Source: Eledone cirrhosa (taxonomy: Eukaryota). Taken from it: 64,000 nucleotides of DNA. Numbering within the stretch: position 1 is the first letter of the stretch; every line of letters starts with the position of its first letter. Below are positions 5,469 to 36,146 of this stretch, piece by piece. The DNA lies in assembly GCA_964016885.1 (NCBI GenBank), contig OZ024740.1, positions 238,018,001 to 238,082,000 on the forward strand, given 5' to 3'. The notes under the pieces are model-generated. The model saw only the letters and a list, made by a program, of their open reading frames with translations, searched no databases and was not told the DNA's origin. A program made the position numbers and the translations under genes.

Positions 5469-6186
5469 ACATAAGTATGTATACGTACATACATATATGT
5501 ATACAGACGTATGTGCGTATGGGTTTACCGAACATTTATTATAATGCTCTGGTTTGTAAATAAATAAACACCCCGAATTATTAGCCGTACAGTGTTCGGC
5601 AACCATCGTTGTCATTTTGTTCAACACTGACAAAGGAACGATGAACTAGTTTCTAGCTTATTAGCTGCCATCAGCACCGTATACCTTCCTGTCAGTTGAT
5701 TGAACGTTTGAAAGTATATACTTTCCGTATGCATATTAACGGCTGAAATTTCATTTTTTCCATTTATCGTTTTGGGTACGCCCGGCCGACTAACTCATTC
5801 GATATGCAAATTAGGTTGCTCAGCCGTTAATATGCATAAGGAAAGTATATACTTTCAAACGTTCAATCAATTGACAGGAGGGTATACGGTGCTGATGACA
5901 GCTATTAAGCTAGAAACTAGTTCATCGTTCCTTTGTCAGTGTTGAACAAATAGGGCAGCGATGGTTGCCGAGCACTCTACGGCTAATAATTCGGGCTGTT
6001 TGTTTACAAACAAACCGAGCATTATAATAAATGTTCGGTAAACCCATACGCACATATATATACGTGTGCATGTATGTATATACATACTACTGTACGCTGT
6101 ATACATATATGTATGTACGTATACATACTTACATTTAAGTATCAGCCGTACTAAGAGTGAGAAATGAAATTTCATTTTTTCCATTT
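5469..6186. mobile_element. ~420-bp HHR family, fold-back insertion (copy A)
   Basis: 5469-5745 is inverted relative to the plus segment 5746-6186, which begins and ends with aaatttcattttttccatttat. HHR at 5887-5927 (+): cggtg-CTGATGA-cagctattaagcta-GAAA-ctag-TT-catcg; mutated copy 5639-5679 (-). Confidence 0.85.
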
Positions 6187-6289
6187 ATATATATATATAT
6201 GTGTATATATATATATATATATATATATATATATATATATATATATATATATATATACATGCATATATGTGAAGAGGTGCCAGGAAATC

Positions 6290-6420
6290 CCAGTTGTAGG
6301 AAGCTGCAGTAGAGGTAGCTGATCTCAGGTGGAGAGATGCTATGCTGAAAAAGACCCATCCAACCCATGCAAGCATGGAAAAATAGATGTAAAAACGATA
6401 ATGATGATGATAGTGATGAT
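6290..6420 (+). mobile_element. RTE LINE 3'-end fragment
   Basis: aagacccatccaacccatgcaagcatggaaaaatagatgtaaaaacgat plus (ATG)n tail; resembles the 3' end of the RTE at 24536. Confidence 0.6.
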
Positions 6421-6516
6421 ATATATATGCATGTATATATATATATATATATATATATATATATATATATATATATATATATATATATATATATATATAT
6501 ATATATATATATTATA

Positions 6517-33600: not shown

Positions 33601-35280
33601 AAGGACCATAGAATGAACCAAATTCTACGAACACACGATATCATAAAGAGCAAAAGACAATCCAAGTCAATGAAAAACATCCTAACACATGCCAAAGTAC
33701 TGCCAACCACAACAACGAAACCCACAGTAAAAAAATGCGATAGACCCAACTGTGGCATTTGCATCAACCTAATAGAGGGTTCGGAATTCTATTTCAAAGA
33801 TGGACAACGTTTTATAGTAAAACACAATTTCACATGTGCATCGGAAAATCTAATATATGTATTAACTTGCTCAGGTTGTCGAAAACAATACATAGGCCAG
33901 ACCAAAAACAGCCTCCGCCAACGCATGACTGTCCATAGATCCCAAATTAAAATACGGGAATACAGGAAAATACCACTGAGTGAACACATTGATACCTGTG
34001 CCGCCCAAAATCATCCCAACTTCAGAATCTTTCCCCTCTACATATTTAAAGATAATGCCACCCACACCCAGCGCATCAGCAAGGAATCTTACTTCATTAA
34101 CAAATACGGACCCCGTCTAAACACTTCTCCCTAAGACGAACCCACAACATACACACGTTAACATACATACCTACATCAGCACACATCTCCACCCACATAT
34201 AAACACAATGACATACGTAAACACACATGCTCTATGGTGCAACACAGAAAAATATATGTGTATATATATATATATATATATATATATATATATATATATA
34301 TATATATAGTGAATATATGTATGTGTATATATATGTAGTGAATATCATTTCACACCTTTTATTGTTAAGATGTTTGATGTTCTATTAAGAGAACCGATTT
34401 TACTGAAAAAATCGAATAATGTACACCATTTTACCAGGGGGAAAAAAATACTGGTCCACCCACACACACACACACACACACACACACACATATATATATA
34501 TATATACACACACACATACACACGCGTACATTAACATACAAAGAGACTTATACACACACACACACACATACACACACACACACACACACACACACACACA
34601 CACACACACACACACACACGCGCGCACTTCTCCGTATAAGACAAAAGCTGACACATTCTTACTGACCATCCCTGCTACCACGAATTACTCTGCTATACAC
34701 ACACACACACAGCGCATCAGCAACCATTATCACAACATCGAACACCTTACTACTACTACACACACACACACACACACACACATATTTGTTGTGAAAGAGT
34801 CATTTCTCAATCTTGGCGCAAAACCAATTTTTTATTCACATGACCTCTACCGACCAATCAAAATTGTTTTGACCACAAGAATTTTTGCAAACACCAAATA
34901 GCGCTGGAGCCACTTTTTTAACATAAAAACAGTCTTGGCGCAAAATCAATTTTTTACATTCACATGACCTCTACCGACCAATCAAAATTGTTTTGACCAC
35001 AAGAATTTTTGCAACACCAAAGTAACGCTGGAGCCACTTTTTTAACATAAAAACAGGTAGAATTCCCAAAACTAATCAGATCAGAGCAAACAACACGGAC
35101 ACTCTATCTCAAAATTATTTTTGAAAAGCATTTAGAAATGCGCAACCGGTAAAAACTTAAAAACTTAAAACCACAACTGAATACTAACCCATACAATCAC
35201 TAATACTCTTTTATTCCTAATTAAACCATTTTTCAACTGTGAACAATTTGTCAGCATTTTCTATTCCGTTTACCAATATA
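30688..35280 (+). mobile_element. PLE containing the 1138-aa ORF, 3' UTR and HHR-like motif
   Basis: 3' region has a ~121-bp tandem duplication (34812-35055) and TTGAAAA-gcatt-taga-aatgc-GCAA-ccgg-TA at 35121-35151. Confidence 0.8.
30718..34134 (+). CDS. Penelope-like retroelement polyprotein (RT + Cys linker + C-terminal GIY-YIG), Neptune-like
   Basis: 1138-aa unbroken ORF: FYGIPKVHK, LRPII, TFDVVNLYSNIP, GTAMGT, RYLDD, FLDI, YYKPT, CDRPNCGIC linker, NLIYVLTC..C..QYIGQT. True start codon uncertain. Confidence 0.93.
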   Translation: MRYYPNYVHYYNPGKTNEEPCEIDSYKMKIRTIPKWNKSLRDRKFSFWKMIQNHNKAEIYEKWLNSTPLTLPRKLQIKSIPNEPEPQRHLRERMALEKMKTEIELLKLRAQTNEEKIKTIDEEILLEINNKTEGPKVEKISKLWKGDCNREELKSLQRWEKSAAWFLHYESTFQTDYTSNNPFIKIGKPITEPHNNFSNPQASNKRRRKHHTEDELPSLATIRRNKNPRNHLPQNDIYNFPPSRRHHTKSLNYYADASSSNIGKRYHCHDRCNNFPASRGQQGNYHFLNSRFHNTQQTHTTRYNQQRRPLITPQYNMAHRNTHPYSQYRNTPFNLQPPTRTTFYNNKEYNKHRRPLNISRQPPLPQPFFRHSTQIQANKITQDREEKPIVIKIINLTSAEPTPNLINLLSKGLKFTPTPLRPNYYELKEDITDFCRKLRLSEQLFDQYNEDESLARNRSNYTPSKGRNKILDEFCEHITNFPYQHLHRQKHKPNLNKKEWEELNRFRTIKIKEADKGSTVVLMETEFYINLALSTLENETYYEKAEHYNQQKIMRNLKTLINQYKEGLTNKEFSFITDFTSKSSLFYGIPKVHKSESISKACKEATDIVINVPSPNDLKLRPIIAGPACETHRLSNFIDTLLKPFLKHIKSYIRDDLDMLNHLHNMPLSEQTLLVTFDVVNLYSNIPHNLGIKAIQFWLDNFHNELPQRIKKEFVIEGLKFILENNYFVFNNKPYRQKSGTAMGTKTAPTYANLVMGYLEITLYTKVLNKFGNTLHLHIERNWKRYLDDCFILWHENIEKLKEFHTLINGLNTNINFTMEYSHQQLPFLDILIKIHNKKIETDIYYKPTDSKQYLPFNSCHPRHVKINIPYNLAKRICTIVSNKNICYLRLQELNDTLIGRDYPASIIDNGIQRALKLSTQDLRHPKVNQPKLKALPYISTHNPLNNEAFDTILQNIPVLKKDHRMNQILRTHDIIKSKRQSKSMKNILTHAKVLPTTTTKPTVKKCDRPNCGICINLIEGSEFYFKDGQRFIVKHNFTCASENLIYVLTCSGCRKQYIGQTKNSLRQRMTVHRSQIKIREYRKIPLSEHIDTCAAQNHPNFRIFPLYIFKDNATHTQRISKESYFINKYGPRLNTSP

Positions 35281-35296
35281 TATATATATATATATA

Positions 35297-36146
35297 TAAG
35301 TTGAAAAAAAATGAAAACAAAATTTCATTTCTCACTCTTAGTATGGCACTTACTTAAATGTAAGTATGTATGTATACGTACATACATATATGTATACAGA
35401 CGTACAGTAGCATGCATATATATATATATATATATATATATATATATATATATATATATATACACATATATACACAAATGCATACAGGTACACATACATA
35501 TATGCACGCATCAGTTTAGCCGGCGTTTATTATAACGCCGGCCGCTTTGTTCGTTTGTTTGTCAACTGTACGTCTGTATACATATATGTATGTACGTATA
35601 CATACATACTTACATTTAAGTAAGTGCCATACTAAGAGTGAGAAATGAAATTTCGTTTTCATTTTTTTTCAACTTATCGTTTTCGGTATGCCTGACCGAT
35701 TTAACTCACTCAATATGCAAATTAGGCTGCTCAGCCGTTAATTTTCATAAGGAAAGTATATACTTTCGAACGTTCAACTATCTGGCAGATGGGTAAACGG
35801 TGCTGATGATAGCTAACAAGCTTGAAACTAGTACATCGTTCCTGTGTCAGTGTTGAACAAAAAGGTGACGTGGTTGCCTTAACACCGTATGGCATAAATT
35901 CAGGCTGTTCGCTTTGTTGACAAACAAACGAACAAAGCGGCCGGCGTTATAATAAACGCCGGCTAAACTGATGCGTGCATATATGTATGTGTACCTGTAT
36001 GCATATGTGTATATATGTGTATATATATATATATATATATATATATATATATATATATATATATATATATATATATATATATATATATATATATATATGC
36101 ATGCTACTGTACGTCTGTATACATATATGTATGTACGTATACATAT
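35297..36146. mobile_element. ~420-bp HHR family, fold-back insertion (copy D)
   Basis: Minus 35297-35565; plus 35565-36146 starts and ends in actgtacgtctgtatacatatatgtatgtacgtataca; HHR 35798-35838 (+) with CTGATGA, GAAA, GTA. Confidence 0.87.

Follow-up and report, generated by a model that had tools for sequence, protein, structure and literature searches.

Four insertions of one short repeat lie within 64,000 nucleotides of the Eledone cirrhosa genome (GCA_964016885.1, contig OZ024740.1, positions 238,018,001 to 238,082,000 of the forward strand; hereafter the window), and they raise the question of which enzyme writes such copies and from what template. A first-pass annotation had placed them at 5469, 10588, 16107 and 35297 in a single cyclic order, which our unit mapping bears out, and had read their differing ends as free permutation of a circular or multimeric RNA. 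With a probability of about 0.6, we regard the family as a non-LTR retrozyme whose copies end at two fixed sites, one per arm, and which a Penelope-like element (PLE) enzyme likely writes in trans into (TA)n, probably from a circular RNA. The class of element is already known; what is added here is the two fixed ends, paired one per arm. Its tens of thousands of short copies bear on the enzyme and the template behind the mobility of animal retrozymes, and they also record how PLEs build tandem and inverted insertions with a one-sided tail.

Insertions in the window

Units are numbered from the first base 3' of the predicted cleavage site, on a D-type consensus of 466 nt in which runs of dinucleotides were collapsed; E1 and E2 denote the two end sites.

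5469-5746, minus strand: copy A inverted arm, unit 364 (5' end) to E1, no tail, internal deletion
5744-6188, plus strand: copy A plus arm, unit 280 round to E2 (310, tail), 1.06 units
5877-5931, plus strand: copy A hammerhead motif, type I, core match at 5892, predicted cleavage after 5922 (GUU)
10588-10992, minus strand: copy B inverted arm, unit 262 to 249 (E1), 0.97 unit, hammerhead core at 10829
10992-11333, plus strand: copy B plus arm, unit 389 to 310 (E2)
11030, plus strand: copy B plus-arm hammerhead core, predicted cleavage after 11060 (GUA)
16107-16405, minus strand: copy C inverted arm, unit 19 to 310 (E2)
16403-16849, plus strand: copy C plus arm, unit 459 to 253 (E1)
30716-35278, plus strand: young, 5'-truncated Neptune-like PLE, a neighbour outside the family, with its frame running to 34134 and then a 3' UTR
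35296-35566, minus strand: copy D inverted arm, unit 83 to 310 (E2)
35565-about 36143, plus strand: copy D plus arm, unit 199 round to about 241 (approximately E1), 1.09 units, merging into TA
35803, plus strand: copy D plus-arm hammerhead core, predicted cleavage after 35833 (GUA)

All four copies are head-to-head fold-backs, as had been annotated for every insertion, although this does not extend to the family at large, where only 60 of the 107 loci sampled below carry a fold-back. Similarly, the claim that copies begin and end at different points holds for their starts but not for their outer ends, all eight of which lie at or near E1 or E2 (that of the copy A minus arm matches an E1-type end). 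The annotated wrapping past one full unit is confirmed in the plus arms of copies A and D, and copy A's plus arm does start and end at one point, its first and last 24 nt (5744-5767 and 6165-6188) being 100% identical. A custom scan of the window found type I hammerhead motifs at 5892, 10829 (minus strand), 11030 and 35803, and no core in copy C, whose plus arm has its TA tract split by about 140 bp of foreign sequence (16590-16729). The core of the copy A minus arm carries a substitution, read directly at about 5661-5680. In none of the four copies do two hammerhead units stand in tandem.

An abundant protein-free unit with a predicted hammerhead

The family belongs to the non-LTR retrozymes: a mobile element of very high copy number that encodes no protein and whose RNA is predicted to contain a self-cutting motif. 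Its unit is a closed cycle of 421-466 nt after collapsing (422-552 nt raw), has no reading frame and a GC content of 37-38%, and is present in at least 28,000 units across the genome. Four unit motifs have 12,230, 27,837, 28,535 and 37,061 exact genome matches and their reversed-pattern controls none, which identifies a repeat family rather than chance. The unit belongs to the size class of retrozymes (tandem units of about 150-450 bp, as dimers to multimers), with arrays of up to about 15 units.

In a sample chosen independently of the hammerhead, 59 of 73 motifs have an intact core. This core is conserved across three subfamilies with the stem I pair swapped (of 205 motifs, 148 have G.U and 43 have U.G), and the motifs vary at N7, loop 2 and H17. 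Stem III consists of two base pairs, and stem II begins with a U.U or C.A mismatch. An Rfam gathering search of the copies returned neither a hammerhead nor any other match, and the minimum-energy fold of the isolated motif is not a hammerhead (z -0.75 to 0.28); the whole circular unit has a stable predicted fold (z about -8 to -9). If self-cleavage occurs as predicted, the motif may need a dimer or a protein. An octamer at unit 348 may recall the newt satellite 2 promoter, for which a search gave no confirmation. We also considered a SINE, with its linear body of fixed length and small-RNA-derived head, and rejected it, as arms wrap past one unit and the copies have no Rfam match.

Two fixed 3' ends, one per arm

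Our main set combines samples 1 and 2 (107 loci, 186 arms), picked by motifs at the hammerhead, while sample 3 (20 loci, 30 arms) was chosen by a motif near the unit 3' end. Four loci duplicated between samples, TA-only alignments and alignments below 75% were excluded from the counts, and six large arrays picked by identity entered the array analyses only. One locus with two near-identical insertions (L239) was counted as two.

Outer (3') ends fall at E1 or E2 in 153 of the 186 arms (72 E1 and 81 E2), the two sites being 50-58 nt apart and both in (TA)n. A Rayleigh test of 3' ends gave p about 1e-22. The remaining 33 ends lie elsewhere, several of them in arms visibly cut by later insertions or deletions. 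Free circular permutation thus fails: most copies share fixed 3' ends, which the first-pass annotation had itself named as grounds against its reading, and only the points of 5' truncation vary. The two sites are moreover distributed in a nearly strict manner. Among 64 fold-back pairs, 41 join one E1 to one E2, one is E1+E1, none is E2+E2 and 22 have an unclassified end, that is, one end of each kind in 41 of 42 classifiable cases (binomial p about 1e-11). Sample 3 behaves likewise, with 25 of 30 arms at E1 or E2 and six E1+E2 pairs, no like pair and three unclassified. (TA)4 is found at 138 of 160 E1/E2 ends, against a background of 14%, and no target-site duplication is discernible by eye, the flanks being mostly (TA)n.

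Two 3' end sites bounding a tail, an inverted 5'-truncated copy and a preference for (TA)n are all features of PLE-type insertion. By analogy, the two fixed outer ends are the PLE 'tail' anatomy, and they match the two internal start sites of a PLE enzyme in vitro as given in the accessible text of PMC11167929. Local autonomous Neptune-like and Hydra-like PLEs likewise have two ends, inverted arms and (TA)n.

Scattered 5' ends and the nature of the template

Inner (5') ends are scattered over every part of the unit (78 arms, Rayleigh p 0.29), and arm lengths range from 0.1 to about 15 units, with 75 of 186 arms exceeding 1.05 units. Arms of 0.9-1.1 unit wrap over the unit boundary without a tandem partner. 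Since PLE insertions ordinarily vary at the 5' end and fold back, neither feature is by itself evidence of a circle. The cleavage site is more informative: 7 arms stop there against 9.4 expected, and genome matches number 28,535 for a motif spanning the site, 27,837 for one immediately 3' of it and 37,061 for one close to the unit's 3' end, so that neither sampled arms nor genome-wide motif counts have an excess of stops. The hammerhead is crossed by 144 of 186 arms, a figure inflated by the choice of samples 1 and 2 at that motif. Given this missing step and arms of up to about 15 units, the template should be a circle or an uncut multimer rather than a cut monomer, and the annotated preference for a circular or multimeric template over a linear SINE stands. 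The missing step excludes that most copying was done from a cut linear monomer, although cut linear templates may form a minority, since 4 of the 30 sample 3 arms stop at positions 7-17. Stops are enriched at 283-312 (32 of 186 arms, a count reached in 0 of 400 uniform simulations).

Between the two remaining templates, we tentatively favour an RNA circle over an uncut multimer. The competing account is PLE two-site insertion from a long uncut read-through array transcript, or by repeated template jumps, with the hammerhead as a passenger. It covers the fixed ends, the absence of a cleavage-site stop and, if source arrays are homogeneous, the shared alleles described below; it also agrees with the weak predicted fold of the hammerhead and, in the available part of PMC11167929, with unprocessed RNA being the main in vitro substrate and hammerhead mutants still being inserted. 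We nevertheless hold it rather unlikely. Linear copying only keeps or loses units, whereas many loci hold arrays of 8-15 units, each array with a period and alleles of its own; a passenger hammerhead sits poorly with a core kept across three subfamilies; and stops cluster near the tail after whole turns, though protein bound to upstream units could do likewise.

Penelope-like neighbours

Copy D sits in (TA)n past the end of the window's Neptune-like PLE, whose frame (RT plus GIY-YIG) is intact, and PLE coding sequence abuts the unit directly at four loci (L125, L129, L232 and L246). Both observations would suit a unit that serves as pseudo-LTR to a longer autonomous PLE, short copies being its truncated ends. 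This reading is very unlikely, and the sampled loci largely refute it. Because arms wrap back into the unit, no room is left for a frame. The window PLE (30583-34134) was rejected as the unit's parent, as its terminal repeat is its own 3' UTR, and 28 of its 30 sampled copies have no unit nearby (all but the window copy and L054). In 60 unpaired arms, the sequence 5' of the arm points to no common parent, other repeats and one duplicated locus apart. RT matches occur at 9 of 113 loci, at unrelated positions, and at 0 of 20 in sample 3. The fusions differ in register and in PLE family, and no RT plus GIY-YIG frame joined to the unit in constant register occurs in the sampled loci, the pattern expected of the longer autonomous element that the first-pass annotation had named as its second possible refutation.

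Direct fusions are otherwise rare: none in 29 other Hydra-like loci and one among 50 Neptune-like loci (L054), where a unit 88% identical to the consensus beside a 99% young PLE is probably a later insertion. Two further candidates (L134 and L140) matched the Neptune UTR over short simple-repeat stretches and were not taken as fusions. Some single retrozyme arms meet arms of other elements head to head, which implies that two arms need not derive from one RNA. L125 joins a Hydra end with tail to a retrozyme end without, and L129 the reverse (relative ages there are ambiguous, the PLE part differing at 17/2205 from its family majority and the units at 8/237 from each other); the rule of one tail per event would hold even in these two cases, where the arms would have started on different RNAs.

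Shared alleles and arrays

At family-polymorphic sites, the two arms of an insertion agree in 584 of 676 comparisons for the D type (53% between insertions) and 162 of 183 for the A type (56% between insertions), which speaks for one template per insertion. B-type arms agree at only 225 of 362 sites, against 53%, which counts against a shared template, and in only 13 of 22 cases are the two arms closer to each other than to the most similar other insertion. At locus L247, the unit segments of both arms have no differences, and two rare alleles are present in all 13 covering segments. Repeat periods are array-specific. No RNA-editing footprint was seen on the sense strand, either among 54 shared variants (9 A>G and 8 T>C) or among singletons (32 A>G and 40 T>C).

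Such homogeneity could in principle arise in DNA, from a fixed-end monomer retroelement whose arrays and fold-backs formed later by unequal crossover, slippage, conversion or hairpin repair: conversion could homogenise arms, and satellite growth from PLE ends is proposed in the accessible text of bioRxiv 10.64898/2026.07.22.740005. We judge this highly improbable, since it leaves unexplained the pairing of one E1 with one E2 per fold-back (41/42), the unrelated arm lengths and the arms of 0.9-1.1 unit that wrap the boundary without a tandem partner. Finally, reverse transcription starting anywhere on a circle, to which the spread of 5' ends would be congenial, is scarcely credible and already refuted by the end map, with 3' ends at two sites and several of the off-site ends visibly cut later.

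A model for retrozyme insertion

We return to insertion by a PLE enzyme. It is likely that a borrowed Penelope-type enzyme, working from the two sides of a DNA break, copies an RNA that is probably circular; mobilisation by PLE enzymes is likely, while we assign the partner to no single family. Tandem copies would be transcribed, cut by the hammerhead and ligated into a monomer circle. A PLE RT-endonuclease, probably a dimer, would bind the tail hairpin and cut both (TA)n strands; the two DNA ends would prime at different sites, one at E2 and one at E1, and mostly on a single RNA. Each polymerase would then run backwards round the template and beyond the cleavage site, with a nearly constant chance of stopping that rises near the tail once whole turns are completed. 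The two cDNAs would be joined at their far ends, often through a few shared bases, to yield the fold-back. The most specific version, in which a fold-back is a single event of a dimeric enzyme, most likely of the Hydra clade, that primes both break ends at the two fixed sites of one ribozyme-made circle and rolls independently on each side, is offered tentatively, as a possibility. The end pairing predicts that both start sites are used once per event by one enzyme complex.

Comparison with known systems

Metazoan non-LTR retrozymes, as presented in the accessible portions of PMC7229834 and 10.64898/2026.07.22.740005, are likewise non-coding tandems of a few hundred bases with low GC, type I hammerheads, thousands of copies and a stable predicted circular fold. 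Axolotl HHR_Amex2 in particular is brought to mind by the two-pair stem III and by the U.U with which stem II begins. Self-cleavage and circles have been demonstrated at the bench for metazoan retrozymes, whereas here they are predicted. Those same portions propose PLEs as the mobiliser of retrozymes but do not describe fixed priming sites, a tail, an inverted arm or end pairing.

On the PLE side, complex insertions of EN+ elements (Neptune, Naiad and Hydra), in the sections of PMC8557442 available, share with our family partial tandems, an adjacent inverted 5'-truncated copy, (TA)n targets and a tail often at one end only. In contrast, the unit here encodes nothing, forms a closed 0.4-0.5 kb cycle with a 50-58 nt tail and can be repeated, in one arm or in both, to a total of about 15 units. 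The non-autonomous Chlamys element MRC1 of those sections is comparable as a PLE derivative with multicopy head-to-tail insertions; Chlamys elements are generally without canonical hammerheads, and the 3' end of MRC1-type elements resembles that of an autonomous partner, whereas we found no partner with such a sequence link.

The closest biochemical parallel is Poseidon PAc in vitro. As far as the accessible text of PMC11167929 goes, two internal start sites bound a tail, both strands are cut and extended, and the enzyme is predicted to be a dimer; unprocessed RNA is used and hammerhead cleavage is unnecessary, so an uncut multimer would fit as well. Common to both systems are the two starts bounding a tail, an AT-rich target and the lack of a hammerhead stop. 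The in vitro reaction was followed in bulk with linear RNA of the element itself and showed start sites alike between strands, whereas here pairing is counted per insertion, and the rule of one tail per insertion, set beside the EN+ PLEs of PMC8557442, emerges from these counts as nearly strict.

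Retrozyme Unit and Hammerhead Motif

Comparing the sequence with itself and mapping the copies onto the consensus unit of each subfamily confirmed the cyclic order and the wraps described in the first-pass annotation for the four retrozyme insertions of the window (copies A to D, near 5469, 10588, 16107, and 35297), all of which are head-to-head fold-backs. The genome comprises 3.0 Gb in 1,796 contigs, and (TA)n is plentiful in the window. Three subfamilies were recognized, whose units measure 421, 424, and 466 nt after collapse of dinucleotide runs and are identical at 357-385 positions in pairwise comparisons, and exact matches genome-wide range from 12,230 to 37,061 depending on the motif (0 for controls). 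All subfamily consensuses carry an octamer motif, a candidate promoter element, at unit position 348 (numbered on the 466-nt D-type consensus from the first base after the predicted cleavage site), and a neighboring repeat (window ~17150-17430) holds many copies of it.

Every unit carries a type I hammerhead motif in which stem III comprises two pairs, the loop is palindromic, and stem II has a mismatch at its base. Among 205 matched motifs, N7, loop 2, and H17 vary; at the variable stem I pair, 148 motifs have G.U, 43 have U.G, 8 have A.U, and 6 are unpaired. As the pattern behind these matches fixes the hammerhead core, core conservation rests on a sample chosen independently of the hammerhead, in which 59 of 73 are intact. 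An Rfam search returned no match for the hammerhead, and the minimum-energy fold predicted for the isolated motif is another structure.

Fixed Outer Ends and Scattered Inner Ends

Loci were sampled in chromosome order from the first 100 matches of the hammerhead motif (set 1, 60 loci) and of the motif just 3' of it (set 2, 51 loci, together with which a few hammerhead-motif matches near 18 Mb entered), giving 107 loci and 186 arms after removal of four duplicates. Outer (3') ends fall at two sites, E1 (~252, no tail; 72 arms) and E2 (~310, with a tail; 81 arms), the other 33 lying elsewhere. Fold-backs occur at 60 of the 107 loci and form 64 pairs: 41 E1+E2, one E1+E1, no E2+E2, and 22 with an unclassified end; the longer arm is the tail arm in 20 of the 41 mixed pairs. 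In set 3, which adds 20 loci chosen by a motif near the 3' end, 25 of 30 arms end at E1 or E2, with six mixed, no like, and three unclassified pairs. All four window copies obey this pairing rule.

Inner ends are scattered round the unit, with a single cluster at 283-312 (32 of 186 arms; 23 stops versus 8.8 expected by hazard). Arm junctions show overlaps of 1-6 bases in 27 of the 64 pairs and are blunt in seven, as roughly delimited by BLAST edges. Thus, the free permutation initially proposed is not borne out: with outer ends at E1 or E2 and inner ends spread, the copies have fixed starts and variably truncated 5' ends.

Nature of the Template

The arms of one insertion mostly carry common alleles: at sites polymorphic in the family, arm-to-arm agreement is 584/676 in the D-type subfamily and 162/183 in the A-type (only 225/362 in the B-type), versus 53-56% between insertions. 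At two loci (L247 and L248), neither arm shows any unit-to-unit difference outside the TA tract and rare alleles are carried by every unit. Across arrays, raw periods are array-specific. A circular template would simply explain the allele sharing, the uniform units, and the array-specific periods, as units cannot be added by linear copying. Alternatively, a homogeneous array may have been transcribed and its RNA copied uncut, or the uniformity of arms and units may stem from later conversion; an RNA-editing footprint, which could tell the circle from either, gave a negative result.

Priming at 252 or 310 on a cut linear monomer would give no more than 310 nt, and such a monomer is rejected as the main template, longer arms being observed: length is above 1.05 units in 75 of the 186 arms, above two in 21, and above three in 10, and one array (L245 plus L246, picked by identity) reaches ~15 units. 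Because sampling favors arms spanning the cleavage site, genome-wide counts weigh more: 28,535 matches across the predicted site, 27,837 just 3' of it, and 37,061 near the 3' end. The ratio of the last two (1.33) is close to the 1.39 predicted from 0.0017 stops/nt in the sample over ~190 nt, a comparison blurred by mismatch rates differing between motifs. As 4 of 30 set 3 arms stop at positions 7-17, a minority of templates were possibly cut and linear.

Other Elements and Candidate Mobilizing Enzymes

Other elements in the window
3184-4617: 483-bp unit of a different hammerhead family; 2.6 units (99-100% identity) and an inverted arm of 179 nt
4642-5427, minus strand: 477-bp hammerhead unit, ~1.6 units
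11355-13187: young 535-bp unit, ~2.9 units and an inverted arm of 307 nt, within TA; anatomy alike
30196-30592: short fold-back belonging to yet another hammerhead family, with ~80 nt between its outer ends
1258-2343, 13249-15100, 40946-42442: three Hydra-like Penelope-like element (PLE) remnants, matching the L129 element; all missed by Pfam
47511-50963, 57410-60352, 62497-63078: non-LTR (APE-RT) retrotransposon copies
23659-23716: tRNA-like match

The 483-bp copy has TA tracts on both sides and outer ends ~110 nt apart in the unit, and shares only the hammerhead region with the 477-bp unit. Strict and relaxed scans found no hammerhead in the 535-bp unit. The family of the short fold-back was found again beside many other insertions. 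A 5.5-kb fold-back (38332-43890), which has a hammerhead-like motif close to both of its ends, contains the third Hydra-like remnant in its loop.

A young PLE with RT and GIY-YIG domains and 99% copies lies just before copy D, and was judged Neptune-like by comparing its linker motif with those in the available text of PMC8557442. It occupies 30716-35278, with further copies at sampled loci L031-L060 and L251-L270 and ~1,200 candidates. We rejected it as the source of the unit, as the repeat of this PLE is the PLE's 3' UTR, bearing a 40-nt tail distinct from that of the unit; a strict scan of this UTR in the window copy found no hammerhead.

A young Hydra-like PLE family likewise has two ends and arms in inverted orientation, together with (TA)n. 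Hydra-like sequence is directly fused to the unit at 4 of 113 loci (L125, L129, L232, and L246).

Composite retrozyme and Hydra-like insertions (direct joins)
L125: 3738-about 5050
L129: 1223-4815
L246

L125 is the cleanest: between two (TA)n stretches lie, in this order, an inverted, tailed Hydra end, a piece of Hydra coding sequence, and 1.05 units ending at E1. In both L125 and L129, one of the two elements supplies an end with a tail and the other an end without. Elsewhere, the unit is joined head to head with a Neptune-like end (L221) or with another hammerhead family (L150 and L178). All these joins hint at a common machinery. They could also have arisen from later insertions accompanied by deletions, and no enrichment of the unit was seen in the samples taken from the PLE side.

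Comparison with Known Systems

No published retrozyme with paired fixed ends and no cephalopod retrozyme was found in our search of the openly accessible literature, and this family could stand in the supplements of PMC7229834, PMC8557442, or PMC13282606. In the available text of the Octopus vulgaris repeat annotation (PMC13282606), the words 'ribozyme' and 'circular' are absent, and molluscs are not among the groups named in that of bioRxiv 10.64898/2026.07.22.740005. Retrozymes, their circles, and the hypothesis of mobilization by PLEs already appear in what is available of PMC7229834 and that preprint, as do the tail of PLEs, their inverted copy, and their preference for (TA)n in PMC8557442 and two internal start sites in PMC11167929. 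Judged from sequence, the element would insert in the manner of PLEs and displays every testable feature of retrozymes, self-cleavage and circles being predicted.
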